Positions 29,934-61,700 of a stretch of 64,000 bases of DNA are shown here, one piece after another (position 1 is the stretch's first letter; each line of letters opens with the position of its first letter). Source of the stretch: Acidobacteriota bacterium (GTDB lineage: Bacteria; Acidobacteriota; UBA4820; DSQY01). Under the pieces are notes generated by a model. That model did no database searches. It saw nothing but the letters and a program-made list of their open reading frames with translations, and was not told the DNA's origin. Made by a program: the position numbers and the translations under genes. The DNA lies in assembly GCA_049591295.1 (NCBI GenBank), contig JBAWEQ010000080.1:2238-66237 (forward strand). Direction: 5' to 3'.

Positions 29934-29952
29934 CCCGTTCACGGAGGGCCCC

Positions 29953-31104: not shown

Positions 31105-31130
31105 AGGCTTAGGACAGGGAGGGAGGAACC

Positions 31131-32333: not shown

Positions 32334-32360
32334 CGAGGGAAACCAAGGAGCAGGGAACCT

Positions 32361-32404
32361 GGAGGCAGGGAGGGAACGAGGCCGCGAGCCACCTCCCTGC
32401 CTCT
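32361..32404 (+). terminator. GC-rich hairpin after pilC (possible intrinsic terminator, weak U-tract)
   Basis: ggaggcagggagg ... cctccctgcctct, 12/13-bp stem, followed by tggcttcgtctcc. Confidence 0.35.
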
Positions 32405-36227: not shown

Positions 36228-36418
36228 GGGAAAGAAGATTCCCATTTTAGAAAGTGAAAAGAATGCACCACCAAGACACCAAGGCACCAAGGGATCGTAA
36301 ATCGAATCTTGGAAAAAGCTCCTCCGGCCATCCCGCGTCTCCTAAGCATCTCATCCCCTCATCCCCTACTCACCTCATCACCTCATCACCTCATCACCCC
36401 ATCACCCCCGAGGCCTGA

Positions 36419-37420
36419 ATGACCGATGCCGCCGGTCCCGCCCCCCCGGAACTGAGCCTCCTGGTCCCCCTCTACAACGAGGAGGAGAACCTGGAACCCC
36501 TGCTGGAGCGCATCCAGGAGGAGATGGCCCGCCTGGGACGGAGCTACGAGGTCGTGCTCGTGGACGACGGCTCCCGAGACAGCACGGTGGCGCGGCTCAA
36601 GAGGGCCGTCGCCCAACGCCCCCACCTCCGCGTCGTCCTCCTCCGGCGCAATTCCGGCCAGACCGCCGCCCTCGCGGCGGCCATCGAGCACTCCCGGGGG
36701 GCCGTCCTCGTCCCGCTGGACGGTGACCTCCAGAACGATCCCGCCGACATCCGCAAGCTGGTTTCGAAGCTCGACGAGGGCTTCGACGTGGCCAGCGGCT
36801 GGCGCCGCCACCGCCGGGACCCCTTCTTCACGCGCATTCTGCCCTCGAAGATCGCCAACGGGCTCATCTCCCTCATCTCGGGAGTCAAACTGCACGACTA
36901 CGGCTGCACCCTCAAGGCCTACCGGCGCGAGGTGCTGGCCCCCGTGGTGCTGTTGGGAGAGATGCACCGCTTCATCCCCATCCTGGCCACGTGGCAGGGG
37001 GCGCGCGTGGCCGAGGTGGAGGTGACCCATCATCCCCGCGTGGCGGGCAAGAGCAAGTACGGCCTCGGCCGCACCCTCAAGGTCGTCCTCGACCTCCTGA
37101 CCATCAAGTTCATGGGCTCCTTCCTCACCAAGCCCATCTACGCCTTCGGCGGAGCGGGCGTGGGGCTCTGGCTCCTCTCGGCTGTATTGGCCGCCTACAC
37201 GCTTTGGCAGAAGCTGGCCTACGGCGTCTGGGTCCACAACAACCCCCTGCTCCTCGTGGCCATCTTCATCGCTCTCGTAGGGATGCAGCTCATCATGATG
37301 GGCCTTCTGGGCGAACTCCTCATCCGCATCTACTTCGCCAGCTCCGGAACAACCCCCTACGTCATCCGCGAGGTTCTCGAGTCGCCTGGGGGCGGTGGAG
37401 AGGTGGAGGCTGAAGGGTGA
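36419..37420 (+). CDS. GT2 polyprenyl-phosphate glycosyltransferase (ArnC/GtrB/DPM1-like) with C-terminal TM anchor
   Basis: LSLLVPLYNEEENL ... VVLVDDGSRD ... DGDLQNDP; the stop codon lies inside the first GGGTGAA repeat unit. Confidence 0.8.
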   Translation: MTDAAGPAPPELSLLVPLYNEEENLEPLLERIQEEMARLGRSYEVVLVDDGSRDSTVARLKRAVAQRPHLRVVLLRRNSGQTAALAAAIEHSRGAVLVPLDGDLQNDPADIRKLVSKLDEGFDVASGWRRHRRDPFFTRILPSKIANGLISLISGVKLHDYGCTLKAYRREVLAPVVLLGEMHRFIPILATWQGARVAEVEVTHHPRVAGKSKYGLGRTLKVVLDLLTIKFMGSFLTKPIYAFGGAGVGLWLLSAVLAAYTLWQKLAYGVWVHNNPLLLVAIFIALVGMQLIMMGLLGELLIRIYFASSGTTPYVIREVLESPGGGGEVEAEG

Positions 37421-37500
37421 AGGGTGAAGGGTGAAGGGTGAAGGGTGAAGGGTGAAGGGTGAAGGGTGAAGGGTGAAGGGTGGAGGGTGAAGGGTGAAGG
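37414..37500. repeat. Heptamer microsatellite (GGGTGAA) x12
   Basis: Perfect tandem array beginning within the last codons of the GT2 gene. Confidence 0.95.
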
Positions 37501-37560
37501 GTGAGGAGTAGAGAGCCCATGACCCATCGGCCAGCAGCCATGGATTCAAGAAGAATCATG

Positions 37561-37660
37561 GCGCTCCCGTGGGGCGGGCACCCCGGCCCGCCGCTCTCCC
37601 GCTCCGCTGAACCGTGGGGCGGGCGCCCCCGCCCGCCGCTCCCCGGCTCCAACCGGCGCG
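37561..37660. repeat. Pair of GC-rich palindromic REP units (GTGGGGCGGGCGCCCCCGCCCGCCGCTCCCC) upstream of the RAYT gene
   Basis: Each unit contains the inverted repeat GGCGGGCG / CGCCCGCC. Confidence 0.8.
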
Positions 37661-37724
37661 CCCCAAGAAGGCTATTTCCAATGAAAAGAAAGCCTCCTCA
37701 ACGAGGCGAAGCTTCACTCCGGCC

Positions 37725-38438
37725 ATGGAACGGCTGACGACCTATCGTCGCCGCCTACCCCATTTTCATGTGAGGGGTGCCCGCTACTCCCTCACGTTCC
37801 GCTTATCACCCCGGCAATCCCCGCCGCTATCCTCCAAAGAGTGCGAGGCCATGGTCTCTCATATCCACAAGATGGGCCCGGGCAAGGTTGAAGCCTTCGT
37901 CGTTATGCCCGACCACGTGCATCTTCTCTATTCCACCACGAGAGATGAGCATCTGATCAAGACATTACAATCCCTCAAGGGCTCGTCTTCCCATACCCTC
38001 ACCAGCCGCTTCGGCCGCCGGTCACCCATATGGCAGGATGAAACCTATGATCACCTCATCCGCAATGAGCCGGAATTCAGCACAGCTTGGCTCTACATAG
38101 AGGGCAATCCCGTTCGAAAAGGCCTCGTTAGCCGCATCACAGACTATCCCTGGTCCAGCGCTTGGAAGGGAGGGGGGGTCGCGGCCGAGGGCGGCCGCGC
38201 CACAGCCGAGACCGGCCGCGCCACAGCCGAGGGCGGCCGCGGTACGGAAGAGAATCATGATGAACTCGTGGGGCGGGCGCCCTCGCCCGCCGCTCCCCAT
38301 GGTCACCCCACCGTGGGGCGGGCGCCCTCGCCCGCCATCCCTCATCCCCAATCAGACCCGCAACCCCTTGATGGTCTCGCGGCCGAGGGCGGCCGCGCCA
38401 CAGCCGAGGGCGGCCGCGCCACGGGCGAAGGGAAATAG
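37725..38438 (+). CDS. REP-associated tyrosine transposase (RAYT; IS200/IS605 TnpA-like HUH enzyme) with a repeat-encoded C-terminal tail
   Basis: PDHVHLLY (HUH) and WQDETYDHLIRNEPEFSTAWLYIEGNPVRKGLVSRITDYPWSSAW align with E. coli YafM/TnpA-REP (PEHMHCIW ... WQPRFWEHAIRN ... YIYINPVKHGWV ... DWPFSTF). The reading frame then continues without a stop through REP copies (GRAPSPAAPHG..., AAEGGRATAEGGRA). Confidence 0.8.
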   Translation: MERLTTYRRRLPHFHVRGARYSLTFRLSPRQSPPLSSKECEAMVSHIHKMGPGKVEAFVVMPDHVHLLYSTTRDEHLIKTLQSLKGSSSHTLTSRFGRRSPIWQDETYDHLIRNEPEFSTAWLYIEGNPVRKGLVSRITDYPWSSAWKGGGVAAEGGRATAETGRATAEGGRGTEENHDELVGRAPSPAAPHGHPTVGRAPSPAIPHPQSDPQPLDGLAAEGGRATAEGGRATGEGK

Positions 38439-38441
38439 GCC

Positions 38442-40313
38442 ATGTGCGGCATAGCGGGCTTCGCGCTGAACCGGCCGGCTGATCGCGAGGCGCTCGCGGC
38501 CATGACGCGGAGCCTCGTGCACCGGGGCCCCGACGGGGAAGGCTTCTTCGTGGAAGAGGGCGTGGGGCTGGGCCACCGGCGCCTGGCCATCCTGGACCTT
38601 CCGGGCGGGGCCCAGCCCATGGCCAACGAGTCGGGCTCGGTGGTGGTGGTCTTCAACGGCGAGATCTACAACTTCCAGGCCCTGCGCGCGGAGCTGGAGG
38701 CCAAGGGACACCGCTTCGCCACGCGCTCGGACACGGAGGTGCTCGTGCACCTCTACGAGGAGGAGGGCGAGGATTTCCTCCCCAGGCTGAACGGCATCTT
38801 CGCCTTCGCCCTCTACGACCGCGAGCGCCGGAGCCTCCTGCTGGCGAGGGACCCGCTGGGAGTGAAGCCGCTCTATTATGCCGAGGTGCCGCGAGGGCTC
38901 CTGTTCGGCTCCGAGCTCAAGGCCCTGCGCGCCCATCCCGATTTCCCGACTGACCTGGACCTGGATGCCCTGAAGGCCTACTTCACCTGCGAATACGTCC
39001 CCGCTCCCCTCTCCATCTACCGTTCGGCCAGAAAGCTCCTGCCCGGCCACGCTCTGCTGGCGGGACCGGAGGGAATCCGGGTCCGTCCCTACTGGCACTG
39101 GGCCATTCCTCAGGAGCTTGGGCTGTCCCGGGCAGAAGCGGCGGAAAAACTCCGGGAAACGGTCCTGCGAAGCGTCAAGGGCCAGCTCATCTCCGACGTG
39201 CCCCTGGGGGTGTTCCTGAGCGGCGGCGTGGATTCCAGCATCGTCGCGGCCTGCATGGTGGAAGCGGGGGGGCGCGTGGAGAGCTTCTCCATCGGCTTCG
39301 AGGACCCCTCCTTCGACGAGAGCGCGTACGCCCGGACGGCGGCGCGGCACCTGGGTTGCGGCCACCACGAGCACACCTTCTCCGAGAAAGAGCTGCTGGC
39401 CGAGGTCCCGCGCGTACTCGGCCTTCTCGACGAACCCTTTGCCGACCCCTCGCTCTTTCCCACCGCCCTGCTCTCCCGCTTCGCCCGGCAGCGCGTGACC
39501 GTGGCCCTGGGCGGGGACGGCGGCGACGAGCTCTTCGCGGGATACCCGACCTACTGGGTGCACCACCGCTTCGGCCTCTACCGGTCCCTGCCGGGCTGGG
39601 CGCGACGCGCCGGGATGGCCGCGGCGGACCGCCTCCTGCCCGTCTCCCACGCGAACCTCACCCTGCCCTACAAGCTCCGCAAGTTCAGGGACGGGGCTGA
39701 GTATCCAATGCCGCTGCGGCACCACCTCTGGCTCGGCTCGTGGACCCCGGAGGGGCTCGCGCGGCTTATGCCAGGTGCCGGTGCCGTGGCCCTCTCCGAG
39801 AAGTGGATCCCGGACGCGCCGCAGAAGGATCCCGTCACCTCGGCCCAGTGGCTGGACCTCCACACCTATCTGCTGGAGGACATCCTCGCCAAGGTGGACA
39901 GGGCCAGCATGATGGCCTCCCTGGAGGCCCGCGTGCCCCTGCTCGATCCCGAGATCGTCCGCCTCGCCTTCGCCATGCCCCACGACTGGAAGCTCCGCGG
40001 GCGCGCGGGCAAGGCGGTCTTCAAGGAGGCCTTCGCCGGCCGCTTCCCGAAGGGCTTCCTCGACCGCCCCAAAAAGGGCTTCGGCATCCCCGTCGCCCGC
40101 TGGCTCACGGGCCCCCTGCGGCCCATGGCCGAGGAACTGCTCTCCGATGAGGTGCTGGGCAGGGTCCCCTTCCTCAAACCGGACGAACCCCGCCGCCTCT
40201 GGCGCGAACACCTCGCCCGCAAGGCCGACCATCGCAAACCCCTCTGGACCCTGCTGTGCTTTCTCGACTGGTGGAGGAGGGACCACAAGCGGATAGGAGG
40301 AAGGAGCGAATGA
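38442..40313 (+). CDS. asnB: Asparagine synthase (glutamine-hydrolysing) family amidotransferase
   Basis: MCGIAGF N-terminal nucleophile, SGGVDSS PP-loop; 623 aa. Confidence 0.9.
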   Translation: MCGIAGFALNRPADREALAAMTRSLVHRGPDGEGFFVEEGVGLGHRRLAILDLPGGAQPMANESGSVVVVFNGEIYNFQALRAELEAKGHRFATRSDTEVLVHLYEEEGEDFLPRLNGIFAFALYDRERRSLLLARDPLGVKPLYYAEVPRGLLFGSELKALRAHPDFPTDLDLDALKAYFTCEYVPAPLSIYRSARKLLPGHALLAGPEGIRVRPYWHWAIPQELGLSRAEAAEKLRETVLRSVKGQLISDVPLGVFLSGGVDSSIVAACMVEAGGRVESFSIGFEDPSFDESAYARTAARHLGCGHHEHTFSEKELLAEVPRVLGLLDEPFADPSLFPTALLSRFARQRVTVALGGDGGDELFAGYPTYWVHHRFGLYRSLPGWARRAGMAAADRLLPVSHANLTLPYKLRKFRDGAEYPMPLRHHLWLGSWTPEGLARLMPGAGAVALSEKWIPDAPQKDPVTSAQWLDLHTYLLEDILAKVDRASMMASLEARVPLLDPEIVRLAFAMPHDWKLRGRAGKAVFKEAFAGRFPKGFLDRPKKGFGIPVARWLTGPLRPMAEELLSDEVLGRVPFLKPDEPRRLWREHLARKADHRKPLWTLLCFLDWWRRDHKRIGGRSE

Positions 40314-40335
40314 GCAGCCCAAAGCGAGGAATCCC

Positions 40336-40470
40336 TTCCCGTGGGGCGGGCGCCCTCGCCCGCCGCTCCCCGACTCCGATCAACCGTGGGGCGGGCGCCC
40401 CCGCCCGCCGCTCCCCGACTCCGACCAACCGTGGGGCGGGCGCCCCCGCCCGCCACTCTTCCGCTCTGGA
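40336..40470. repeat. Three tandem 45-bp copies of the same GC-rich palindromic REP (BIME-like cluster)
   Basis: ccgtggggcgggcgccc(t/c)cgcccgccgctccccgactccga(t/c)caa x3. Confidence 0.85.
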
Positions 40471-40621
40471 GAGCGCTCCTACAAGGGCCTAGAGCATGCG
40501 AAGCTCACACGCCAAGGATTTCACTCCCATTCGCCATTCGCCATTCGAAATCCGAAATCCCTTCGTGCCTTCGTGTCTTGGTGGTGAATTTTCCTTCCCC
40601 CCTTGGCCCGAGCTTCTCCTC

Positions 40622-42259
40622 GTGGTCCTCGTGGCGGCGGCGGCTTTCTTCGCCAGTTTCAAGGCCGTTCAGGACCCCGATACCTTCTGGCACTTGGCCA
40701 TCGGGAGGGAGATCTGGCAGACCCATCACCTCGTGCGCACGGAGACCTTCTCGTTCACCGCCAGGGGCGCCCCCTGGACCGACGAGGAGTGGCTCTTCCA
40801 CCTCCTCTGCTACCCCCTGTGGCTGTTGGGCGGAGCCGCCCTGGCCAAGGGGCTCACGGCCGCCTGCGCCGCGCTCGGCGTCCTGGGGGCCTACCGCTGC
40901 GTGCGGCTCTCGGGAGGCAGCGCCCCCGGCCTGGCGATCTTCGTCCTGCCCCTCCTGGCCGTCTACGGCGAGCGCTTCCGCTACCGCCCCGAGATCTTCT
41001 CGCTGGTGCTGATGGTGCTCCTCCTGGCGATCCTCCTGAAGTCCGAGGCCTCGCCCGCGGGCCTTCGCCGCGCCCTGCCCTGGCTGCTCGCGCTCTTCCT
41101 GCTCTGGGTGCAGATCCACGGCGCCTGGGCCTACGGGCTGGTGCTGACGGGGGCCTTCCTGGCCGGGAGGCTCGTGGATCGGTGGAGGGAGGGCGCCCTC
41201 GCGTTCAAGGACGCCCTTCACAGCGCGGGCATCGTCTTGGCCTGCTGGGCGATCACCCTGATCAACCCCTTCGGCTGGCGATTGACATTCTTTCCTGTCC
41301 AGCACGCGCTGGACCTTCTGAACCACAAGGCCTACGTCCCCATCGCCGAATGGGTGAGGACGCCCCTGACCGGCGTCTACGCGCTCTTCGCGGCCATGGC
41401 CGTCGCCACCCTACTGGCCCAGCTCTTCGCCCGGCCGCACCGCTGGTCTTCCATTCTCGTCGTCGCGAGCCAAGTGGCGCTGGGCCTTTACTGGGTCCGC
41501 TACGCGGCCTACGCCGTGATCACCCTGGCCCCTTTCGCCGCCCGATCGTTGCAGCCGATCCTCAACCGCCACCGGGTGCAGACGGCGGCCTACGCCCTCG
41601 GCATTCCGCTAGCCCTCTTCGCCGCAGGCTGGCAGGCGCTGCACCCGCCGCTTTACCCGCCCATGGCGGAGCGCTACCCCGTCCAGGAGGCGGCCTTCCT
41701 GAAGCGCGTGGACTTCTCGGGGAACCTCTACCACGAATTCCGCGTGGGCGGCTATCTGGAGTGGGCCCTCGACCACCAGGCCAAGGTCTTCTTCGACGGG
41801 CGCTTCGGCCCCTTCAACGAGGCCGGGATTGCCTACTACCAAGCCCACCGCTCCATTCCCGCCTTCGAGGCCTTCCTGGCCCGCTACCCCTTCGACGCGG
41901 CCCTCTATTCCTACAAGGACTTCACCTTCAAGGGCCCGCCCGGCACCCCGCCCCGCGGCCCCTCCGCCGTCCTCTTCCCACCGGAATCCTGGGTCATGGT
42001 GGACTTCGGCCCCTACGGCATGGTCCTCGCCAAGCGCGAGCCGGCCAACCAGGCCCTCATCCAGAAGGACGGCTATCCGCTCCTCCGCCTGGATGACCTG
42101 CCCTACCTCCTCTGGAGCGCCGAGCACGGTACCATCCCGCCCCAGGCCCTCACCGCCGAATTGGAGCGGGCCCTCAACAAGAAACCCAGCCCATACCTGC
42201 GAAGGGTCATGGATAATGCCCTATCTTCGCTGATGGCTTCAAGGGAAGCTCATGATTAG
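40622..42259 (+). CDS. Polytopic membrane protein, putative GT-C-fold glycosyltransferase (paralog A); ORF opens at 40496 but the N-terminal extension is repeat-derived
   Basis: About 12 TM helices; conserved DPDTFWHLAIGREIW and GAPWTDEEWLF loop motifs shared with the downstream paralog. Confidence 0.5.
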   Translation: MVLVAAAAFFASFKAVQDPDTFWHLAIGREIWQTHHLVRTETFSFTARGAPWTDEEWLFHLLCYPLWLLGGAALAKGLTAACAALGVLGAYRCVRLSGGSAPGLAIFVLPLLAVYGERFRYRPEIFSLVLMVLLLAILLKSEASPAGLRRALPWLLALFLLWVQIHGAWAYGLVLTGAFLAGRLVDRWREGALAFKDALHSAGIVLACWAITLINPFGWRLTFFPVQHALDLLNHKAYVPIAEWVRTPLTGVYALFAAMAVATLLAQLFARPHRWSSILVVASQVALGLYWVRYAAYAVITLAPFAARSLQPILNRHRVQTAAYALGIPLALFAAGWQALHPPLYPPMAERYPVQEAAFLKRVDFSGNLYHEFRVGGYLEWALDHQAKVFFDGRFGPFNEAGIAYYQAHRSIPAFEAFLARYPFDAALYSYKDFTFKGPPGTPPRGPSAVLFPPESWVMVDFGPYGMVLAKREPANQALIQKDGYPLLRLDDLPYLLWSAEHGTIPPQALTAELERALNKKPSPYLRRVMDNALSSLMASREAHD

Positions 42260-42326
42260 AGTTGTTGCACGAATACGAAGCATCATCCGCTGGTTTTTCC
42301 CTCCCCTCCCCCCTCTGGAGGGAGCA

Positions 42327-44051
42327 ATGTGGGCAGAAATTGTGCTTATCCTACTCTTGATGGCCCTGGTGGCTCAGGCAAGCTTCTCCCCCATTTGGGA
42401 TCCAGACAGTTTTTGGCACTTAGCCATTGGAAGGGAAATCTGGACGGTCGGCCATCCCCTCTACAAGGAGACCTTTTCGTTTACTCTCGCTGGAAAATCC
42501 TGGTTCGATGGGGAATGGCTTTTTAACTTTGGCATCTATGTCCTTTGGCGCCTGGGGGGCTACCCGCTTTTGGAGTGGAGCGTAGCTCTGGGCGGAGCTC
42601 TTGTGGTTGGGCTCCTCTATCGCGCTGTGAGGGTTACCGGCACTACGGCGCTGACGCTGGCTTGCTATTTCATGACCGTCTTACCAGCTTTCACCGATCG
42701 AATTCGGTTAAGGCCAGACGTCCTCTCTATGATGTTCCTGGCTCTATTATTGGAGCGCATGCGACGATGGAGAACAGATCCAGACGCGCAGCCCGGCACC
42801 TGGCTGTTCGTCCTATTTCTCTTCGCTCTCTGGGCCCAGTGCCATGGTGGGTGGAGTTTCGGTTTGCTGATCTTGGGCGTCATTGCTTCGGGGATGCTTC
42901 TCGATGGCTGGCAAGAAGGCATCCCATTCAACTCTCATCGCTTGGCCGTACTGGTCACGCCGCTGGTAGCGGCCCTAACGGGGGTTCTGATTAATCCCTA
43001 TGGATGGAGGACCCTGGCCTTTCCCTTCGAAAACCTCCTCGCCCTCTTCGATCGCCAGCTCCCCGTCCTTTTTGAATGGCAGCATACTCCGCTCACCCTC
43101 AGCACGCTACCCAGTCTAGCTATATTTTCGCTTGTGTTTCTTTCCACTCTGCTGCCGTTCAAGAAGGTTTGCTGGACCGAGGTGTTATTTTCCGGAAGCC
43201 AGCTATTTCTGGGCTTCTGGTGGGAGCGATACTTGTCCTTCGCGGCATTAACTCTGGCGCCACTCGCCTGCTTAAAACTAGAACCTCTTCTGCGCCGGGG
43301 CACGGCGACCCGCAAGCCCATCCTCGCGGGAGCTTTATTGTTGCTGTTAGTTCGCGGTGTCTCCATTGCATCCATGCCCACTTCCTCTTGGAGCCTAGCC
43401 GAGAATTATCCCTTGCAGGAGGTCCAATTTCTGAAGCGACATAATACTCCAGCAAATTTGTTTCACACCTTCGTTGCGGGAGGATTCCTGGAATGGGAGT
43501 ATTGGCCCCTCGGCAGGGTTTACATGGACGGGCGATTGATCTTTCTTCCAGAACTCAGCGCCTATCTGCAAGCCAAGCAAAGTCTTCGGACATTCAAGGC
43601 GTTTCTACTGTCTCACCCTTTTACCGTCGCCATTGTCCCATACGCTTCGGCACCATTGGGGGGCCAAGGCTTGGATGGCCCGGCGAGATCACTCAATGAC
43701 GACATATTCTCCAATAGGGAATGGGCGCTTGTCTTTTTTGGGGAGTATGGTTGCGTCTACCTACGAAGAATTCCCGCTTACGAACCAATGATCCAACGCT
43801 ACGAATTTCACCTCTTGAAGCCATGCGACAATGCTTACCTTGTCTGGTGCTGCCGTACAGGCAAAATCAATCCCGCGGAATTACATTCTGAAATTGAGCG
43901 CGTAACAAAACGAGAACCCAAAGTCGCACGAGCTCTTCACTTCTCTGAACTTGAGCAAGCCATCTCGGCCATTACCACAAAGGGGGCAATTGCCAGCGGG
44001 AGGTCGAAAGCCTCTTCACCGACAGCGCCACCCAGAGGACCGCAAGAGTGA
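42327..44051 (+). CDS. Polytopic membrane protein, putative GT-C-fold glycosyltransferase (paralog B, low-GC xenolog)
   Basis: ATG at 42327 with SD GGAGGGAG; DPDSFWHLAIGREIW, GKSWFDGEWLF; local GC about 52% against about 68% for paralog A. Confidence 0.5.
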   Translation: MWAEIVLILLLMALVAQASFSPIWDPDSFWHLAIGREIWTVGHPLYKETFSFTLAGKSWFDGEWLFNFGIYVLWRLGGYPLLEWSVALGGALVVGLLYRAVRVTGTTALTLACYFMTVLPAFTDRIRLRPDVLSMMFLALLLERMRRWRTDPDAQPGTWLFVLFLFALWAQCHGGWSFGLLILGVIASGMLLDGWQEGIPFNSHRLAVLVTPLVAALTGVLINPYGWRTLAFPFENLLALFDRQLPVLFEWQHTPLTLSTLPSLAIFSLVFLSTLLPFKKVCWTEVLFSGSQLFLGFWWERYLSFAALTLAPLACLKLEPLLRRGTATRKPILAGALLLLLVRGVSIASMPTSSWSLAENYPLQEVQFLKRHNTPANLFHTFVAGGFLEWEYWPLGRVYMDGRLIFLPELSAYLQAKQSLRTFKAFLLSHPFTVAIVPYASAPLGGQGLDGPARSLNDDIFSNREWALVFFGEYGCVYLRRIPAYEPMIQRYEFHLLKPCDNAYLVWCCRTGKINPAELHSEIERVTKREPKVARALHFSELEQAISAITTKGAIASGRSKASSPTAPPRGPQE

Positions 44052-49361: not shown

Positions 49362-49454
49362 GAGACGCTGTCTCCACGGCAAGTATGCTTCCCATGGCGC
49401 AACCTCGTCGAGCCAAGAATGCGGCACGGGGAGCCCCTAACGCCATTCCGGCAG

Positions 49455-51080: not shown

Positions 51081-51934
51081 CGAAACAGGCTCACCTTTCT
51101 CACCGCGAAGTTCCAGACGAACACCAGCGCCGTCGTGATGAGCTTGGAGTACAGGTAATAAAGGCCGGCCACGCTGGTGAGGAGCCACATGGAGAGATCG
51201 TTGAGCCCTAGCCCTAGCACGCCCACGAGCGCGAAGAGTCCAAATTCCACCCAGCGGTTGCTCACTGCTCGCTTACTGAACACCCACAGGACGCTGAAGG
51301 TATAGTTGATGATGAGCCCCACCACGAAGGCGAGGGTGGCCGAGGTGAGGTAGTAGAGGCCGCCGTAATGGGTGAGGGCGTACAGGAGCCCGAAATCTAT
51401 TACGAAAGCCGCCCCGCCCACCACCGTGTAACGGAAGAATTGGACCAGCGTGCTCTCGGTAGGCGTGCCGAACAAGTCCTTCAGGATGGTCTTCACCTCT
51501 TGGCCAGCCTGCCATATATCGGAGCGCAGATCCCCTTTCGACTCCCGGAAGACGAAGCGCCGCATGAGCAGGAAGGAGATCATCGCTGAGGGCAGCGTAG
51601 CCACCGCAGCCGTCACAAGCACGTGTACACCAAGCTCTTTGAAGAGCCTCAGAACCCCTACCCCCACCACGTACATGAAGCCGTAAACCCCGAAAAAACG
51701 CACAATCAGCCGGTTATCACGACTCTTGAAAACGATGGTCCCCGTCGTTTTGAAGTTGAAGAGAATTCCAAGGATGGTCTCGATGAGAGCAGCCAGAGCA
51801 TAGTGCAGGCCCAGCAGAATGAAGAGGGCGAAGACCGAGTAGCCGAAGAGGGTGTTGATACCGCCCACAAAGAGGAAGCGGATAAAAGGTACGGCCCAGA
51901 GCCTCCGAATAGTAGCGGGCAGGGCCAGAGGCAT
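51077..51934 (-). CDS. Tandem (duplicated) GtrA-like flippase-type membrane protein
   Basis: Two consecutive GtrA-like repeats each ending in an N(F/Y)xxxxxW(V/I)F-type motif (ILFNFKTTGTIVF; INYTFSVLWVF ... WNFAVRKVSLF); start overlaps the GT2 stop. Confidence 0.6.
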   Translation of the reverse strand: MPLALPATIRRLWAVPFIRFLFVGGINTLFGYSVFALFILLGLHYALAALIETILGILFNFKTTGTIVFKSRDNRLIVRFFGVYGFMYVVGVGVLRLFKELGVHVLVTAAVATLPSAMISFLLMRRFVFRESKGDLRSDIWQAGQEVKTILKDLFGTPTESTLVQFFRYTVVGGAAFVIDFGLLYALTHYGGLYYLTSATLAFVVGLIINYTFSVLWVFSKRAVSNRWVEFGLFALVGVLGLGLNDLSMWLLTSVAGLYYLYSKLITTALVFVWNFAVRKVSLFR

Positions 51935-52956
51935 TACCGGTCCGTGTCGGAGGCCGCTACGTCCCCCGCCTTCTCTGCTTCCCCTTGCTTTCTCGGCTTC
52001 ACAGATCCCGGCTCGTTTAATGGCGGCTCGAAGTTGATCCGTTCCTTCTCGATGACCAGCGGCCGTTTGCGGACGTGCGTGTAGATGAAGCCGATATACT
52101 CCCCCAGAATGCCCGTAAAGAAGAGCTGGATCGACCCCAAGAAAAATACCGCCACCAGGAGTGGCGCAAGTCCAAGCGTGAATTCCTTCCAAAAAAGGAG
52201 CTTGTAGACCAAATACCCCATGCCGACGAGAAAGCTCAGGGCCGACATGGCGAAGCCGAGCATGGTCGCGAGCCTGAGCGGCACCTTGCTGTGGCTCGTA
52301 ATCCCCAACATGGCAACGTCGTACAAGCGGTAGAAGTTATATGTGCTCTTGCCCCTCTTACGCGCAGGTTGGTCGAAGTGGACGAGAGCACGTTCAAACC
52401 CCGCCTCCATGACCAGCCCGCGGAAATACGGATAGGGGTCGTCCATCTTCCGCAGGGCCTCGATGATGCAGCGGTCATAGAGGCCGAAGCCGTAATAATT
52501 CTCGATCAGCTCGATCTCCGAGAGGCGACTCACTAGCCTGTAATAGAACCTCCGGATGGAGTACATCAGCTTCGACTCCCCAGCGCTGCGCTTCACCGCC
52601 AGGACAACCTTGTAGCCCTCCTCCCACTTCTTAATGAACGTCGGGATCAGCTCGGGTGGGTCCTGCAAATCGGCGGCCACGGGTATCACAGCATCGCCCC
52701 GGCATTGCAGGATGCCGTAAACCCCCGACCGCGTTACCCCGAAATTCCGGCTGTTCAAAATCACCTTTACGCGCCTGTCCCGCGCCGCAAGTGTCCGGAG
52801 CTTATCCTGAGTGCCATCCGTTGAAGCGTTATCGATGAAGACGTGTTCATAGACATAATCGTTAAGACCTTCGAAGACCTCCTTTACCCTCGCACACACC
52901 TCCTCGACATTATCAACTTCGTTATAGCAATGGCTTAACACACTCATCAGAACCAT
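51934..52956 (-). CDS. GT2 polyprenyl-phosphate glycosyltransferase (GtrB/ArnC-like)
   Basis: MSVLSHCYNE ... FIDNASTDGT ... AADLQDPPE; C-terminal TM. Confidence 0.8.
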   Translation of the reverse strand: MVLMSVLSHCYNEVDNVEEVCARVKEVFEGLNDYVYEHVFIDNASTDGTQDKLRTLAARDRRVKVILNSRNFGVTRSGVYGILQCRGDAVIPVAADLQDPPELIPTFIKKWEEGYKVVLAVKRSAGESKLMYSIRRFYYRLVSRLSEIELIENYYGFGLYDRCIIEALRKMDDPYPYFRGLVMEAGFERALVHFDQPARKRGKSTYNFYRLYDVAMLGITSHSKVPLRLATMLGFAMSALSFLVGMGYLVYKLLFWKEFTLGLAPLLVAVFFLGSIQLFFTGILGEYIGFIYTHVRKRPLVIEKERINFEPPLNEPGSVKPRKQGEAEKAGDVAASDTDR

Positions 52957-52993
52957 CTATACTCTCCCAACCATTCCATTTCACGCGTGCCCA

Positions 52994-54763
52994 TCATAGT
53001 CCCCTCCTCTGCAAAAGAACCCACAACTTCGACTCAGCTACCTTAGTATAGTCTTTCGCCAACATTGCCGCATAATGCCTTTGCATAAAGGCTGAGGTGT
53101 AGGGAATTACCGCTCTCTTGGGTATCATGATTATATCAACAGTTGCGACAAGCTTCTGCACACTTGGAGCCGTTCTCCCCGTCACATTTCCCGTGTAGTT
53201 CCACATCGGCATATCCCACCGTGCACTGGGCAGGCCAAGTGCAAATGGAAACGGATTGGAGTAATCCATTACCATAATGGTGCTCTTCTCTGTAATTCTC
53301 GGCTTCAGTAGCTTCAGCCCATCCTTAATCCAACAGCAATATTCGAAAGCGGTCATTTGCTTAACCCACGGATTCCTAGATAACAGCGCCGACACCCCCT
53401 CATTCTCGGTAAGCGCCGTCTCCCTGTATCTCTGATAACCCTCAAAAACATCATCAACGGCCGAACATCCGTTCTCCTCCACATTTCCCCTTATGACGAT
53501 TTCCGCGGGTGGCAATATAAGTTCTTCGATGCTCTTCTCATGGAACCTACACTTCTCAATAAGCACGGCGTTGCTTTCCTTCCATGACACAGAATTAATT
53601 ACGCTCGCCACATCCGGGACAAGAACCGTCCCTATTAAAAACACCGCCACCACCCAACCAATCCATAGCTCGCCTCCTCTCTCCGCGCCCCTTGAATCCT
53701 GCCCCATCCCTGCCGGTCCCAAGAGATATCCGGCCGCTAAGCCAATCAACGGGATCTGCACCAACTGACCATTTGTACTTGTTACCATAATACTCGCGGC
53801 AACCACTACCATAACTGTAAGCAACACCCGCTGGGACCGCGGCGTCCAGTCGCGGACCACCGCTGCCCATGCGATAAATAACAGCATCAACGGTACACCG
53901 TTACTGTCCAACACCCGCAACAATCCTTCGATTCTGTCCACAGGCTGATAAAGAGGTTCCATTCTCGACAAATCGCTGAGGTATCCCACAATAGATATTC
54001 TCAAGCTGACCCCAAGCACGAATATGACACCTATTACGCCTATTAGTTTCGCAAGCAGGGCCCACCAACGATTACCTCTAATTATATTAGCATAACACAC
54101 AATTCCACACGCCACCAAGAAAAAATTCATTTTGACATAGAACTCCATGCCAATACAAAGAGAACCCAACATAAAGTTCAGACGATCTAGCCAGTCACAA
54201 TGCACTAACCTTCGTGGGAAGATTTCCTCAACGGCAATAATGCACAGCAAAGCCCAACCTACCCTATCATATAGCATCGCATAGGAGGTGCCCTTGTAAT
54301 GGAAGCCAAGCGGATAAGTGGCAATTGGAAGAACAAAGACCATACTCGACACAAGGAAGCACAACAACGCCGGCATTCTTCTGCTACCAATAGACCAGAT
54401 AGCCGCAGCACTCGTAGCCGCGAAAATGCACATGCCAACAGTGATTGCCTGCACTTTTGGCCCCACTATAGCCATTCCTACTCGTATCAAGTCGAGAAAG
54501 AAGTCCCCATAGGGATAAGAAAAATCAATATGCGCCCTTTGGCCACAACATAGTCGCCAGGCTGCATCCAGAAAGATCGTTGTATCCCAAGGAAACATCA
54601 GTTGATGGCTAAATCCCATTCTGAGGACAATCAATACGGTGATCATAACAACACACGCGAACATGCATCCCCAGAACACATACGCCTTCTTGCTAATACT
54701 ACTCACAGCAAAACGAAGATACTCCTCAGCTCTTTCCAGATCCAACCTATTCCTTTGCATCAT
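52994..54763 (-). CDS. Hypothetical polytopic membrane protein (low GC, about 46%)
   Basis: 589 aa, many TM helices; codon use distinctly AT-richer than flanking DNA. Confidence 0.5.
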   Translation of the reverse strand: MMQRNRLDLERAEEYLRFAVSSISKKAYVFWGCMFACVVMITVLIVLRMGFSHQLMFPWDTTIFLDAAWRLCCGQRAHIDFSYPYGDFFLDLIRVGMAIVGPKVQAITVGMCIFAATSAAAIWSIGSRRMPALLCFLVSSMVFVLPIATYPLGFHYKGTSYAMLYDRVGWALLCIIAVEEIFPRRLVHCDWLDRLNFMLGSLCIGMEFYVKMNFFLVACGIVCYANIIRGNRWWALLAKLIGVIGVIFVLGVSLRISIVGYLSDLSRMEPLYQPVDRIEGLLRVLDSNGVPLMLLFIAWAAVVRDWTPRSQRVLLTVMVVVAASIMVTSTNGQLVQIPLIGLAAGYLLGPAGMGQDSRGAERGGELWIGWVVAVFLIGTVLVPDVASVINSVSWKESNAVLIEKCRFHEKSIEELILPPAEIVIRGNVEENGCSAVDDVFEGYQRYRETALTENEGVSALLSRNPWVKQMTAFEYCCWIKDGLKLLKPRITEKSTIMVMDYSNPFPFALGLPSARWDMPMWNYTGNVTGRTAPSVQKLVATVDIIMIPKRAVIPYTSAFMQRHYAAMLAKDYTKVAESKLWVLLQRRGL

Positions 54764-54824
54764 TACTTACCCCAATCCACTTTCCTATCTACTTCATCCA
54801 CCGCTTCCGGCCCCGCTATCACCA

Positions 54825-55736
54825 TTACCATCCCTCCAGCGCTGTACCAGCGGGGCGTTCCTGCCAATCTTGAAGTGCCTGAGCAATAGAATGAATGTCG
54901 TTCAAGCCCACGACGCTGCTAAGGCGCTCTAGCCTTAGTCCTCCATTCAAGGGTCGCTTAGCCTTTTGATGCAAATTAGCTGTTAGGCATCCATCAATCC
55001 AAGAAGTATCGCCATTCCACCTCTGCACAATCGCTACAGCAAAGTCAGCCCTGCTAAGCAACTCCATTCCGACAACGTTGACAATTCCCTCCGCATTACT
55101 TTCCAGAAGGCCTTTTACCACCTTGGCCAAATCTCGACTGTAGGTTGGAGTCGATATTTGGTCTGAGGGCACTCTAATGTGCTGCCCAGCGTGGAGTTGC
55201 CGAAACAGTCGATATACAAAGTTTTTCCCCCTGTATTCCGGGCCATAGATCCCAGTCGAACGAACAATAAGGGCGCGTCGGTCAGCAGCCAAGACCATCC
55301 GCTCTCCTAGAAGCTTGCTTCTACCATATACCGACAGTGGGCGCGCCGAATCTTCCTCCGAGTAAGGTCCAGCGATACCATCGAAGACATAATCCGAAGA
55401 GAGATATACAAAGCGCCCTCCGCGATTGCTGACCTCCTCCGCCAGGTTCGCTGGAATCGAGGCGTTCGCTCTAAGTGCTCTCTTCTCGTCATCCTCACAA
55501 GCGTCCACATCGCTCCAACCCGCAGCGTATACCACGTGCTTTGGCCTGGCGGCATCAAGCACATCCCTCATTGCAAGAAACCCAGCGCCATTTGTGCGGA
55601 GGTCGATACTTACGACTCCAGCCGTATTTCTTGCCTCGCGATCCACACCTAGCGCAGAATCACCAAGGCACTCCATTAGTGCGCTGCCAACTAAGCCCCG
55701 AGCTCCAACCACTAGCACCGTGCCCACGTCAGCCAT
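54825..55736 (-). CDS. rmlD: dTDP-4-dehydrorhamnose reductase
   Basis: VLVVGARGLVGSAL Rossmann, YxxxK (YGRSK), RmlD-like length (303 aa from the ATG at 55736). Confidence 0.75.
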   Translation of the reverse strand: MADVGTVLVVGARGLVGSALMECLGDSALGVDREARNTAGVVSIDLRTNGAGFLAMRDVLDAARPKHVVYAAGWSDVDACEDDEKRALRANASIPANLAEEVSNRGGRFVYLSSDYVFDGIAGPYSEEDSARPLSVYGRSKLLGERMVLAADRRALIVRSTGIYGPEYRGKNFVYRLFRQLHAGQHIRVPSDQISTPTYSRDLAKVVKGLLESNAEGIVNVVGMELLSRADFAVAIVQRWNGDTSWIDGCLTANLHQKAKRPLNGGLRLERLSSVVGLNDIHSIAQALQDWQERPAGTALEGW

Positions 55737-56178
55737 TCTTGATGGCCCAAGTGTACGGAATCGTGCAGTCATCCCAAGGCAGCCGCTTCATCTCACCTTC
55801 TCTGTATTCTGTCGTGGCGACATTGCATAGCATACTTGGATACACTGCAATGCCCCTGAAGCCGTTCCAGATTGCAGGGGGGATCTGTACAAGGTAATAG
55901 CATTCCGGACCCAGGTATATCTCCTGCACCTCTCCCCGCGTCGGAGAACCCACCCTATCGTCATACAGAACCAGCTTAATAAGGCCATGTGGACAGCAAT
56001 AATTCAGAGTCATCTCGGAATGAAGATGCCACCCCTTCACGACACCCGGATTGATCCACGAGAAATATACCTCACCAACCACCCCGAACTCCTTATCGCT
56101 TCTTTTGATCATATGCATAATTTTGCCACGCTCATCTACGATTATCTCTCTCGCTGCCATTCGCACACCCTCAATCAT
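55729..56178 (-). CDS. RmlC-like cupin (dTDP-sugar 3,5-epimerase / WxcM-type 3,4-ketoisomerase family)
   Basis: 149 aa cupin with GEVYFSW ... GWHLH motif. Confidence 0.55.
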   Translation of the reverse strand: MIEGVRMAAREIIVDERGKIMHMIKRSDKEFGVVGEVYFSWINPGVVKGWHLHSEMTLNYCCPHGLIKLVLYDDRVGSPTRGEVQEIYLGPECYYLVQIPPAIWNGFRGIAVYPSMLCNVATTEYREGEMKRLPWDDCTIPYTWAIKNG

Positions 56179-56206
56179 GGCTCCTCCGCAAATAGCGCTT
56201 GTCTGA

Positions 56207-57067
56207 TCAACCTAACCACCACTCATCACGCATCTTGATTCGCGCCACTATTGATACGACTGTTGTTCTGGCAACATAGTTCAGCACCGCCATTGCGTAT
56301 GCAGCCACCATATCACCTCGCTTGGCTTCATCATGGCCTTTGAAGCTCGAACTTCTAATGAAACGCACGAAATCACAAATCTGGCGCTTTCCAATCTCTC
56401 CACTCCAGGCTTTCCTGGACGCCCGAAATCCACAAAGGACTTCCCCTAGAACAACCATGTCTCCCAATTCCAACAGGCGGACCCAATAATCCAAATCTAT
56501 CATGTAGGGAATCCGTCCATCGAAGCTTCCCGCCACAGCGCTATCAGACCGCCTGAACAACACCGCGCTTGGCTCTCCCACAACGTTGGTTCCATGCCGC
56601 GCCGAGGCCGCTAACACGGCCTGTCTTGCGTATCGACCTGGCTTGAGTGGACAACGCCTCCGAATAAGAATCTGTCCCTTCTCCCCAATTATTCGACGAC
56701 CACATGTAACCAGCGTAATACCGTTGCCTCCTTCGCCTTCAAGCGTTTCCACTTCTCTAGCAATACACATGGGGTCTAGCACATCATCCGCGCATAATAG
56801 CTTGACGTATTTTCCGCTGGCCAGGCTTAGGCAGCGATTCCAATTCGCCTCTGCGCCTATATTCTCTTCATTGCGGTAATGCCGAATTCGCGGATCCACA
56901 AAACCCGAAATAATCTCATAAGTCCGATCAGAGGAGCAGTTGTCGACTACTATCACTTCAACGCTTGGGAAATGTTGCGCCAGGGCTGATTCAAGAGACT
57001 CCAGAATATAAGCCTCCGCATTGTATGTCGGGATGCAGATAGAAACCGTCGGGGTCATTGTTGACAT
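56207..57067 (-). CDS. GT2 family glycosyltransferase
   Basis: VSICIPTYNAEAYI ... VIVVDNCSSD ... CADD. Confidence 0.8.
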   Translation of the reverse strand: MSTMTPTVSICIPTYNAEAYILESLESALAQHFPSVEVIVVDNCSSDRTYEIISGFVDPRIRHYRNEENIGAEANWNRCLSLASGKYVKLLCADDVLDPMCIAREVETLEGEGGNGITLVTCGRRIIGEKGQILIRRRCPLKPGRYARQAVLAASARHGTNVVGEPSAVLFRRSDSAVAGSFDGRIPYMIDLDYWVRLLELGDMVVLGEVLCGFRASRKAWSGEIGKRQICDFVRFIRSSSFKGHDEAKRGDMVAAYAMAVLNYVARTTVVSIVARIKMRDEWWLG

Positions 57068-57339
57068 CTCCCAATGCTACCGTCTCTGACTTACTACTCC
57101 GGCATCATTATGGTATACCCATCACGGGCTAAAACCCTTGTACAGCATTGGCCGTCGGTTTTACAGCTACAACTCTAATGGTGCCTCATTAGTAGGTGGC
57201 TATTGGACAGGCCCCTAACCTCGAACTCCTTCGCGAGATCAACTCCTCCCGTACAGATGTCATTACCCTCCTTCTTACCACCATGCCTCCGCGACTGGAG
57301 TGGTAACATTGTACCAGCGATGCGTTCTCTTCTGAGCAT

Positions 57340-58401
57340 TCAAGGGTTATTCCCCACAACTTCGCCGATCACTTGCTTGACGATATAGAGAGGTCTACGC
57401 TTGGTCTCACGAAAGACACGAGCTAAATACTGCCCTATCAGGCCTAAGGACAACAATTGGGTACCCTCCAGAAACAGAATGACTACAAGAAGTGATGTCC
57501 AACCTTGGATCACCGTCTCTGGATGCATGAGTTTGCTCACAATGAGCCAGACAATCATCACAAATGATCCACACGTCAAAAGAAAGCCTAGCTGCCCCAC
57601 CATGGCAAGTGGCCTATCCGAAAAGCTCGTTATTCCAGCCATCCCAAGCGATATCATCCTTCCAAGGCTATAGTGCGTCCTGCCCGCATAACGTCGGTCG
57701 CGCTCATAATAAATACAGGTCTGCTTGAAACCTATCCATGGGATTAGGCCTCGAAGGTACCGACTTTCTTCTCTCATCGTTCTCAAGATCGTAACGATAT
57801 GCCTGTCCAAGAGCCTGAAATCTCCCGAATCCAGGGGCAAAGAAATGTTGCTCAGTAAGCTAAGGAGTCTATAGTATGTTGTTGCAGTAAGGCGCTTAAA
57901 TGGTGATTCACCCTTTCGACTCCTCCTAACAGCACATACTACTTTCGAGCCTTGTTCCCAATGATCTATCATTGCAGGTATGATTTCTGGTGGATCTTGC
58001 AAATCCGAATCAATGATAACAACGGCATTGCCCCCTGCATAATCTAGGCCTGCGGTAATGGCGCATTGATGACCAAAGTTCCTGGACAAACTAATAACTC
58101 TGACTGTGTTATCACATTTGCAGAGGCCTTCAAGAATATTGAGTGTTTGGTCTTTGCTACCGTCATCGACAAAGACTAGTTCGTGCTCCCAGCCCTTGAG
58201 ACCATCGGCGACTGCTTTAAGTCGCCGATAGAACTCGTGCAGGGTGTCCTCCTCTTGATAAACTGGAGCTACGACGGAAAGAAGCTTGGCCCTCGGCGGC
58301 AGGGCCACTTTTCCCTCCCCTAAACCCTGCTCATTTTCAACAGGGGAGCGCAAGTCTTTACCCGTTGGCACCACCGGCATAGGATTAGATTCCCCTTTCA
58401 A
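57340..58401 (-). CDS. GT2 polyprenyl-phosphate glycosyltransferase (ArnC/GtrB-like) with C-terminal TM helices
   Basis: [14 protein letters not shown] ... VFVDDGSKD ... DSDLQDPPE. Confidence 0.8.
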
Positions 58402-59467: not shown

Positions 59468-59570
59468 CTCGCCCTCCCGTGGGCTGCCGTACAAAATAGC
59501 AAAAAGCGTGCCGCCTATCCGCCCTCCACTCTACACCCTCCACCCTCCACAGCGCTCCACCCGACTGACA

Positions 59571-61420: not shown

Positions 61421-61700
61421 TGGGATGCGGAGGCGACTCGTAGGAGGCCTCTCCAGAGGCCGATGCGCCGGATTCCTCCCACCCATCGCGCCCTGGAGAG
61501 CGCTCCTACGTGAGGCGGGACGCGAGACGCGAGACGCAAAACGCGAGACGCGAAACGCGAGACGCGAGACGCGAGGCGCAAGACGCGAGCGGCGAGACGC
61601 GAGATGGGATGAGGAGGCGACTCGTAGGAGGCCTCTCCAGAGGCCGATGCGCCGAATTTCTCCCACCCATCGCGCTCTGGAGAGCGCTCCTACGCCGGGC
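61421..61700. repeat. Composite repeat: two about 90-100-bp direct repeats (each with an imperfect palindrome GTAGGAGGCCTCTCCAG / CTGGAGAGCGCTCCTAC) separated by a (GCGAGAC)n array
   Basis: Direct reading of 61421-61510 against 61601-61700. Confidence 0.85.

Follow-up and report, generated by a model that had tools for sequence, protein, structure and literature searches.

What would a bacterium do with three membrane-anchored synthases of lipid-linked sugars and about six predicted GT-C glycosyltransferases encoded side by side, and onto which acceptor would the sugars be placed? This question is raised by an island of approximately 22 kb on contig JBAWEQ010000080.1 of a member of the phylum Acidobacteriota. 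We analyzed a stretch of 64,000 nt of this contig (hereafter the window), for which the GC content is about 64% (0.642), and compared it with homologous stretches from other genomes, labelled L001 and so on. An earlier reading of the letters alone, referred to below as the sequence-only reading, had described several systems of periplasmic glycosylation in one locus. The answer that we reached is that the region is likely to be an island of mosaic structure, varying between strains, that uses lipid-linked sugars for glycosylation in the periplasm; it is located directly after pilB-pilT-pilC-pilS-pilR. Folds, family membership, gene order, conservation and composition come from the sequence analysis itself and are described first.

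It is common for bacteria to alter their surface by glycosylation in the periplasm with single sugars delivered on a lipid, which affects recognition by phages, the immune system and antibiotics. The island described here is composed of three layers: a conserved core tied to pilSR (GT2a-AsnB-M1); a semi-conserved block (FAD oxidoreductase, PMT_2-like gene, GtrA and GT2b); and acquired segments of low GC content (M2, and GT2d-GT2c-RmlC-RmlD-M4). The coordinates of the genes are collected in Table 1.

Putative synthases, translocase and transferases

Three GT2 proteins of the island, GT2a, GT2b and GT2d, had been listed in the sequence-only reading as ArnC/GtrB-type enzymes at 36419, 51934 and 57340. 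This assignment agrees with their PF00535 domains, with the two C-terminal membrane helices predicted for each, and with end-to-end alignment to the solved ArnC and GtrB chains (9bhc, 9hwj, 5ekp, 5eke). The nearest solved chain was ArnC for GT2a (9bhc, 5e-56; GtrB 5ekp, 2.6e-42), and GtrB of Synechocystis (sll0501) for both GT2b (5eke, 1e-58) and GT2d (5ekp, 1.4e-80). In the order GT2a, GT2b and GT2d, the NCBIfam ArnC model gave 209.7, 121.7 and 165.7 bits, all below its equivalog cut-off of 529, and the PgfS model gave 141, 194.1 and 275.3 bits, all below its cut-off of 500; the PgfS E-values were 3.2e-57 for GT2b and 6e-82 for GT2d. The DxDLQ motif of this enzyme type reads DGDLQ in GT2a and DSDLQ in GT2d. 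A fourth GT2 protein, GT2c, was absent from the earlier list; it has no predicted membrane helix and is classed as soluble.

The putative translocase of lipid-linked sugars is a fused double GtrA. The PF04138 model matched it with 127.9 bits against a cut-off of 26.1, in three stretches of one open reading frame (ORF). Its two halves are homologous to each other at 2e-5, and seven membrane helices were found by a simple hydropathy scan. The gene had been described as a duplicated-domain GtrA coupled to the middle GT2, and both points were borne out: its ATG shares one base with the stop codon of GT2b (TAATG). Its own stop codon overlaps the ATG of the PMT_2-like gene by 4 nt. The genes for M4, GT2b, double GtrA and the PMT_2-like protein run in one direction, spaced by 37, −1 and −4 nt, and a synthase, a GtrA and a GT-C protein are encoded together at this block. 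The earlier proposal of a GtrABC-like three-component logic repeated several times stands as far as the components go, but its regularity was overstated, as there is one GtrA for three synthases.

The membrane proteins M1, M2 and M4 and the PMT_2-like protein had been taken as GT-C enzymes (listed at 40622, 42327, 52994 and 49455, respectively). For M1, no match was found in Pfam, NCBIfam or the chains of the PDB, the latter being searched with the sequence and with a profile of the family alignment A1; 62 relatives were found by a word-indexed search. An AlphaFold model of M1 built on 45 sequences had a mean predicted local distance difference test score (pLDDT) of 91.9. When this model was compared with the PDB by Foldseek, the top 19 matches were all GT-C enzymes (STT3, AglB, PglB, DPY19, ArnT, AftA, AftB and ALG3), the best being oligosaccharyltransferases, not ArnT. 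Three features do not vary among close relatives of M1: D60-P-D62, which directly follows the first helix, R164-P165 and H208.

For M4, the PDB chains likewise gave no match by sequence or with a profile of the family alignment A4. The Foldseek matches of its model (pLDDT 91.7) were ArnT as the best (9e-7), followed by PglB, AglB, AftA, AftB and Pmt1/2. Transporters appeared among the matches of M1 and M4 only at E>0.04, with template-modelling (TM) scores near 0.1. As judged from these models, the assignment of both M1 and M4 as GT-C fold proteins is well supported. M4 initially appeared as an orphan with two matches in the word-indexed search; this was dropped after an exhaustive HMMER search gave 1102 representative relatives at E<=1e-3. 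Just behind the first helix of M4, D80 is invariant and D60 is conserved at >=90% in 54 sequences of the family; the same 54 members gave no consistent Pfam match, only three single weak ones.

M2 is related to M1 with 37% identity over 537 residues, and the assignment of M2 as a GT-C protein, inherited through this homology, is likewise well supported. The two were previously noted as a tandem paralog pair with a common loop motif, which reads DPD[TS]FWHLAIGREIW; its DPD is invariant in 20 sequences. The starts then given, 40622 and 42327, are probably too far downstream: a start at 40622 would truncate the first membrane helix of M1, and 40496 (or 40565) is likelier, while 42252 for M2 retains the PPLEG motif conserved in the family.

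The PMT_2-like protein passed the cut-off of PF13231, and its family profile matched the M4 family with an hhalign probability of 98.4% (E 4e-15); its assignment as a GT-C protein is well supported by these sequence comparisons. This was the only significant pair among the profile–profile comparisons; M4 against M1 was not significant, nor was the YfhO-like family against M1 or M4. The YfhO-like protein at 43972, also listed earlier as GT-C, passed the cut-off of PF09586 and matched the PgfM1 model at its C-terminus. About 10 membrane helices were predicted for it, and its start may be 46386, 46359 or 46344. A profile search with its alignment A6 gave no match. Since only the C-terminal part matches the models, the GT-C assignment is partly supported and we regard it as probable.

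M3 has six relatives, and is conserved at 43–85% identity in five of them. Just after its first helix, D48, S51, Y52 and G71-Y72-P73 are invariant in six sequences. M3 is possibly a GT-C protein, and a role of D48 as the acidic residue of the first external loop, as in GT-C enzymes, is suggestive only. The six membrane proteins matched nothing beyond PMT_2 and YfhO when compared with Pfam at E up to 10. In the hidden Markov model (HMM) assignment of the membrane proteins, proposed earlier as a check, 49455 just passed the cut-off of its model and 43972 passed over the C-terminal part of its model; M1, M2, M3 and M4 match no curated model. The outcome named as refuting the sequence-only reading, that the membrane proteins would prove to be transporters or polymerases, was observed for none of those tested. 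M1 and M2, of a small family, and M4, with >1,100 representatives, add GT-C proteins for which no curated model exists.

Other enzymes are encoded among these genes. The second gene of the core encodes an AsnB-family glutamine amidotransferase, which passed TIGR01536; its best NCBIfam match was the XrtA/PEP-CTERM amidotransferase, with 568 bits against a cut-off of 817. A flavin adenine dinucleotide (FAD)-dependent oxidoreductase of the PRK07208 type is also present. Its counterpart adjoins a match to GtrA in both L012 and L022, and in L010 the distance between the two is about 2 kb. For the RmlC-like and RmlD-like pair, TIGR01214 gave 190 bits, below the cut-off of 224.

From these observations we infer the enzymatic steps, the sugars and the acceptors, and also the carrier lipid, which is assumed by analogy to be undecaprenyl phosphate. 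[quoted passage not shown] The lipid-linked sugar would then cross the membrane, for which the fused double GtrA is the only candidate encoded here. Outside the cytoplasm, transfer of the sugars to acceptors would fall to GT-C enzymes, no fewer than four and probably six in number (M1, M2, PMT_2-like and M4, probably the YfhO-like protein, and possibly M3). The donor sugars or the glycan on the acceptor may be modified by AsnB, the FAD oxidoreductase, the RmlC-like and RmlD-like proteins and GT2c, which is soluble.

Mosaic structure of the island

On the plus strand stand, in this order, pilB, pilT, pilC, pilS, pilR, GT2a, RAYT, AsnB, M1 and M2. Toward these converges a co-directional array on the minus strand, consisting of RfbH, an epimerase, a thiamine pyrophosphate (TPP) enzyme, NeuB-like, GT2d, GT2c, RmlC-like, RmlD-like, M4, GT2b, double GtrA, PMT_2-like, FAD oxidoreductase, M3 and YfhO-like genes. 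From RmlC-like to YfhO-like, the genes are packed as in an operon, with intergenic gaps of <=61 nt or overlaps, and the FAD oxidoreductase gene and M3 abut. At the point of convergence, M2 and the YfhO-like gene overlap by 80 nt (43972-44051). The gene boundaries agree with ORFs bearing coding-type third-position GC (GC3), which is 0.7–0.95 in most real genes and about 0.5–0.6 in genes on two low-GC segments. All ORFs of the island are intact, and those outside the low-GC segments show coding-type GC3.

The first of these segments is an insert of 1.9 kb carrying M2. DNA homology to the four closest relatives (L080, L001, L002 and L003), which is about 87–97% identical in the flanks, ends at 42174-42177 and resumes at 44045-44054; M2 is missing from all four. 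The GC content of the insert is 0.537, compared with 0.680 and 0.647 in the flanks. Both junctions lie inside the 3′ ends of genes, M1 on one side and the YfhO-like gene on the other, and the last approximately 27 codons of both genes differ from those of the relatives. In the phylogeny of the paralog pair, which the sequence-only reading had proposed, M2 forms a deep branch of the M1 family and is not a recent copy of M1. Its closest orthologue, in L005, is 60% identical, has a GC content of 0.63, and stands in the same order M1-M2-YfhO. These observations support the view that M2 was acquired by recombination from a donor of lower GC content with the same architecture. Lateral acquisition of the second paralog had been suggested from composition, and its absence from the four relatives, along with a GC content of 0.54 against 0.67, is in accord with it; the difference within the pair is real, but amounts to 13 points (0.671 for M1 and 0.538 for M2) rather than the approximately 15% then given. 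The alternative that M2 is ancestral and was lost in the relatives was rejected, because the GC content of 0.54 departs from that of both flanks and of the L005 orthologue (0.63).

The second segment is the cassette of GT2d, GT2c, RmlC-like, RmlD-like and M4. In L010, the orthologue of GT2b is followed directly by NeuB, and the five cassette genes are not between them. The cassette gave no match in a phage collection and no phage genes were seen, so that an origin from a phage-borne gtr operon is not supported.

Other genes of the island also differ between relatives. The YfhO-like allele is 88% identical in L080 and 52–53% identical in L001, L002 and L003; M3 has a match in L080 and none in L001 and L003; L001 carries two PMT_2-like copies. 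The set of genes at this site varies among closely related strains that are about 90% identical in DNA, and the locus shows cassette exchange between strains at this level of relatedness.

The core module itself contains a mobile insertion, the RAYT gene encoding an IS200-like Y1 transposase. GC-rich repeats of 45 nt, resembling repetitive extragenic palindromic (REP) elements, flank RAYT and recur between AsnB and M1 (37570-37650, 38184-38422 and 40339-40458). RAYT has a match in L001 and L005, and none at the equivalent position in L003 and L080.

Candidate acceptors and known systems

The order pilB-pilT-pilC-pilS-pilR-GT2a-AsnB-M1 was found to be conserved in 14 Acidobacteriota loci. In all of these pilS-pilR-GT2a-AsnB-M1 are co-directional, and most of the estimated gaps are under approximately 200 nt, while the identity falls to about 31–40% for M1 and to about 60% for PilR. 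The M1-family genes are present in one to three tandem copies (L004, L005, L011 and L013). A pilin gene is located 2–6.5 kb downstream of the M1-family gene in L006, L008, L009, L012 and L017, and the pilin of L008 matches the N_methyl and T2SSG models. L017 belongs to a metagenome-assembled genome of Thermoanaerobaculum aquaticum, in which an M1-family gene and pilA are 1.8 kb apart. These locations indicate that in this clade the glycosylation genes stand inside the pilus locus, between pilR and pilA. Homologues of the PMT_2-like gene flank pilA in related loci, being near the pilin gene in L006, L008 and L012, and YfhO-like genes follow further on in L006 and L008.

Two further genes were noted next to pilA in these relatives. 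A class I methyltransferase gene is located just upstream of pilA in L008 (13124-16295; checked with Pfam) and L006 (13859-15563), and a transglutaminase-like protein is encoded just downstream of pilA in L008.

Pilin is favoured by the conserved location of the genes after pilR and, in relatives, around pilA, and is the leading acceptor candidate for the conserved core. Action of the core on the pilus is proposed tentatively, and the same caution applies to its specific form, in which GT2a, AsnB and M1, perhaps together with the PMT_2-like and YfhO-like proteins, would O-glycosylate, in the periplasm, the major pilin of the type IV pilus as TfpW does, the variable modules diversifying the glycan, for instance against pilus-specific phages. 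Besides the short gaps from pilS to M1 in the 14 loci and the embedding of pilA among GT-C genes, this possibility has two precedents: a GT-C pilin glycosyltransferase, TfpW (bioRxiv 10.1101/2020.04.19.049825), and phage defence through pilus glycosylation (bioRxiv 10.1101/150227). On the other hand, an acceptor cannot be identified from gene neighbourhood by itself, the window holds no pilin gene, and its right flank resembles a set of genes for polysaccharide sugar biosynthesis.

A more detailed proposal may be made for pilS-pilR-GT2a-AsnB-M1 as an undescribed pilus glycosylation system of Thermoanaerobaculia-type Acidobacteriota: the ArnC-like synthase and AsnB would make an amidated lipid-linked sugar, M1, of the DPDxFWHL family of GT-C proteins, would transfer it to pilin, and the flanking cassettes swapped between strains would diversify the pilus surface. 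In this complete form the proposal is rather unlikely. Thermoanaerobaculum aquaticum has a cultured strain, in which the hypothesis can be tested. The conserved link of the GT2-AsnB-GT-C trio to pilus regulatory genes extends across a little-studied phylum, and it would gain in interest should glycosylation of pilin by the core module turn out to be a system of its own. A literature search for this clade combined with pili and glycosyltransferases found no papers.

Several observations weigh against reading the region as a glycosylation island, or against the pilus as its target. No GtrA adjoins GT2a or GT2d, and the single one present would have to serve three synthases. As all three synthases fall below the ArnC and PgfS equivalog cut-offs, no sugar can be assigned to them. 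In GT2b, the place of the DxDLQ typical of GtrB/ArnC-type enzymes is taken by AADLQDPP, and the first Asp is missing. The YfhO match of the 43972 protein is confined to residues 728-776, corresponding to model positions 787-835 of 835. M3 matched neither the M1, M4 and PMT2 families in profile–profile comparison nor the PDB by sequence or with the profile A3. With respect to the pilus, no pilin was detected in the window by the N-terminal motif or by homology to the pilins of relatives, and a search for sigma-54 promoters between pilR and GT2a gave no more matches than expected by chance. Distant relatives of M1 in Chloroflexota and Actinomycetota have no pilus genes adjacent, and the M1 family as a whole is therefore not specific to pili.

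The enzymes may instead modify lipopolysaccharide (LPS), O-antigen or exopolysaccharide, a possibility that we hold with the same reserve as glycosylation of pilin. Side-branch sugars would be added after polymerization, as by Gtr systems, or lipid A or core would be decorated as by Arn, Lgm or Rgt systems, and proximity to pilus genes would reflect genomic neighbourhood or a functional link of the pili with exopolysaccharide. A polysaccharide or lipid A is favoured by the sugar genes of O-antigen type on the right (RfbH, TPP enzyme, NeuB-like and RmlC/RmlD-like, all typical of O-antigen loci) and by the closest matches, which were ArnC for GT2a and ArnT for M4. The similarity of AsnB to amidotransferases of exopolysaccharide loci points in the same direction, and LolA is encoded in the window, which indicates the presence of an outer membrane. 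Modification of O-antigen by GtrABC is the textbook case of this logic (PMC11194591). However, no ArnA, ArnB, ArnD, Wzx, Wzy, WaaL or initiating phosphoglycosyltransferase was found among the genes scanned (approximately 21–64 kb of the window), GT2a is below the ArnC equivalog cut-off, and the tight, conserved spacing behind pilR is left unexplained. As a working guess, the conserved core and the variable modules would differ in target, the latter decorating a surface polysaccharide or a glycoprotein glycan.

It is improbable that the membrane proteins include polymerases, ligases, transporters or decaying remnants, and that working systems are fewer than they appear. In favour of this reading, M3 showed no homology to a known fold that could be detected, the YfhO match is limited to the C-terminus, the DxD of GT2b is degenerate and M2 overlaps its convergent neighbour by 80 nt. 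Against it, the M1 and M4 models match GT-C folds and meet transporters only at E>0.04, the ORFs are intact with coding-type GC3 outside the low-GC segments, the AAD variant of GT2b is kept in a 77%-identical orthologue (L010 13911-14846), and M3 is conserved in five relatives.

With periplasmic glycosylation retained as the likely function of the island, its parts were compared with four kinds of known system. GtrABC, encoded by phage-borne gtr operons in Shigella and Salmonella, combines synthesis of a lipid-phosphate sugar, its translocation and periplasmic transfer (PMC11194591). The island is similar in having GtrB-type GT2 proteins with a C-terminal helix pair beside a GtrA protein and GT-C proteins. 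It differs in that it is not phage-borne as judged from the search of the phage collection, that one fused double GtrA stands for up to three synthases and about six transferases, and that its GT-C proteins are outside the Pfam families used for GtrC.

The ArnC/ArnT pathway, to which LgmA/LgmB are related, adds aminoarabinose to lipid A. Here the likeness lies in GT2a, for which ArnC is the nearest solved structure (5e-56), and in M4, which is structurally nearest to ArnT. In contrast to this pathway, ArnA, ArnB and ArnD are absent from the genes scanned, GT2a reaches 209.7 bits where the ArnC cut-off is 529, and its partners are the AsnB amidotransferase and M1.

CsbB/GtcA/YfhO and PgfS/PgfM1 act in glycosylation of teichoic acid and adhesin in Firmicutes, and the three-component logic of CsbB/GtcA/YfhO is set out in PMC5836110. 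PgfS is the model to which GT2b and GT2d show the greatest similarity, and the C-terminus of the 43972 protein matches both YfhO and PgfM1. The differences are that the island proteins score under the equivalog cut-offs, that the host, a member of Acidobacteriota, is diderm, and that the YfhO similarity is limited to the last approximately 50 residues.

The last comparison is with pilin arabinosylation by TfpW in Pseudomonas aeruginosa group IV, which appears alike by description in that GT-C enzymes using lipid-linked monosaccharides are encoded in a pilus locus, and with three-component pentofuranose systems. On Rhizobium megaplasmids, two tandem M4-family genes stand beside a UbiA prenyltransferase, GtrA, an FAD-binding oxidoreductase, a short-chain dehydrogenase/reductase (SDR) oxidoreductase and a GT87 gene. 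In L083 (Rhizobium sophoriradicis plasmid pCC511_2, 231126-246526), for example, tandem M4-family 'hypothetical proteins' come directly after the UbiA-GtrA-FAD-SDR genes and adjoin GT87. By analogy, this cluster resembles a donor pathway for lipid-linked pentofuranose of the arabinofuranose type, the logic of which is summarized in PMC11194591. Loci with multiple GT-C genes together with FAD oxidoreductases and epimerases were noted by Kelly et al. (2024), as described in PMC11194591. Unlike the TfpW and pentofuranose systems, the window has no donor synthase of the UbiA type or dependent on phosphoribosyl pyrophosphate (PRPP), the donors presumably coming from GT2 enzymes of the GtrB/ArnC type, and a pilin gene is located nearby only in the related loci listed above.

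The kinds of enzyme and the overall logic are already known from GtrABC, ArnC/ArnT, and CsbB/GtcA/YfhO or Pgf. The island differs from them in its density, with three synthases, about six transferases and a single fused GtrA, in having two GT-C families for which no curated model exists, in the pairing of its core with AsnB, and in the conserved embedding in a pilus locus.

Neighbouring genes and repeats

Table 1. Features of the window, in order of position (bits and E-values are those of the model named)
Feature	Position	Strand	Basis or remark
pilB	28218-29933	+	Pfam T2SSE/MshEN
pilT	29953-31104	+	Pfam T2SSE
pilC	31131-32333	+	Pfam T2SSF
pilS	33206-34855	+	Pfam 6TM_PilS+HisKA+HATPase
pilR	34848-36227	+	Pfam Response_reg+Sigma54_activat
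GT2a, putative ArnC-like polyprenyl-phosphate sugar synthase	36419-37420	+	PF00535 2.8e-31
RAYT (IS200-like Y1 transposase)	37725-38438	+	PF01797 1.5e-8
AsnB-family glutamine amidotransferase, second core gene	38442-40313	+	Asn_synthase 4.7e-95 + GATase_7
M1, predicted GT-C fold transferase	40496-42259	+	AlphaFold model + Foldseek; family without Pfam model
Inserted 1.9-kb segment carrying M2	42176-44053		absent from four closest relatives
M2, divergent low-GC paralog of M1	42252-44051	+	37% identity to M1
YfhO-like large membrane protein	43972-46386	-	PF09586 32.7 bits, cut-off 28.5
M3, polytopic membrane protein	46323-47750	-	six relatives
FAD/NAD(P)-dependent oxidoreductase, PRK07208 type	47751-49427	-	NF005546 843.9 bits, cut-off 418; Amino_oxidase, NAD_binding_8
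PMT_2-type predicted GT-C transferase	49455-51080	-	PF13231 27.7 bits, cut-off 26.1
Fused double GtrA, putative lipid-linked-sugar translocase	51077-51934	-	PF04138 2.9e-37
GT2b, putative GtrB/PgfS-like polyprenyl-phosphate sugar synthase	51934-52956	-	PF00535 1.6e-21
Low-GC cassette (GT2d, GT2c, RmlC-like, RmlD-like, M4)	52994-58401		GC 0.499, window 0.642
M4, predicted GT-C fold transferase, last gene of low-GC cassette	52994-54763	-	AlphaFold model + Foldseek; no Pfam family
RmlD-like reductase	54825-55772	-	RmlD_sub_bind 4.3e-59
RmlC-like cupin	55729-56178	-	dTDP_sugar_isom 1.5e-9
GT2c, soluble GT2 glycosyltransferase	56207-57067	-	PF00535 1.6e-28; zero predicted membrane helices
GT2d, putative GtrB/PgfS-like polyprenyl-phosphate sugar synthase	57340-58401	-	PF00535 2.3e-29; GC 0.483
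NeuB-like gene	58385-59494	-	Pfam
TPP enzyme, acetolactate synthase-like	59571-61388	-	Pfam
Epimerase/reductase	61831-62709	-	Pfam
RfbH	62714 to past window end	-	NF011936 701.5 bits, cut-off 423

The pil genes at 28218-36227 are the conserved left neighbour of the island. The spacer of 870 nt between pilC and pilS (32334-33205) contains arrays of heptamers, and neither a credible ORF nor a pilin was found in it. On the right, RfbH is 442 amino acids long as completed from L081, and the product of the preceding gene matches families of 4,6-dehydratases and epimerases. Sugar genes occupy the 1.4 kb of sequence past the window end that L081 supplies. RfbH, the TPP enzyme, the NeuB-like protein and the epimerase together point to the synthesis of a 3,6-dideoxy or branched sugar, by a pathway that would continue beyond the window.

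Upstream of the pil genes, an ORF of 889 amino acids without a Pfam match runs off the window start (1-2667). The upstream part also encodes a second sigma-54 response regulator, a second T2SSE/MshEN ATPase and SelA (among 3471-4817, 14767-16635 and 17353-19014).

Short tandem arrays with units of 7–8 nt (GCGAGAC-type; GGTGAAG repeated 14.7 times; CTCATCAC repeated 7 times) are scattered across the window, mostly between genes. They were located at 2803-2953, 8508-8537, 12807-12839, 19645-19725, 27378-28067, 32459-32504, 36341-36406, 37402-37504 and 61515-61604. One array, at 27442-27472, lies just inside an ORF for a rubrerythrin-like protein. GT2a is bracketed by two arrays, one just upstream of its start and the other beginning at its stop codon.

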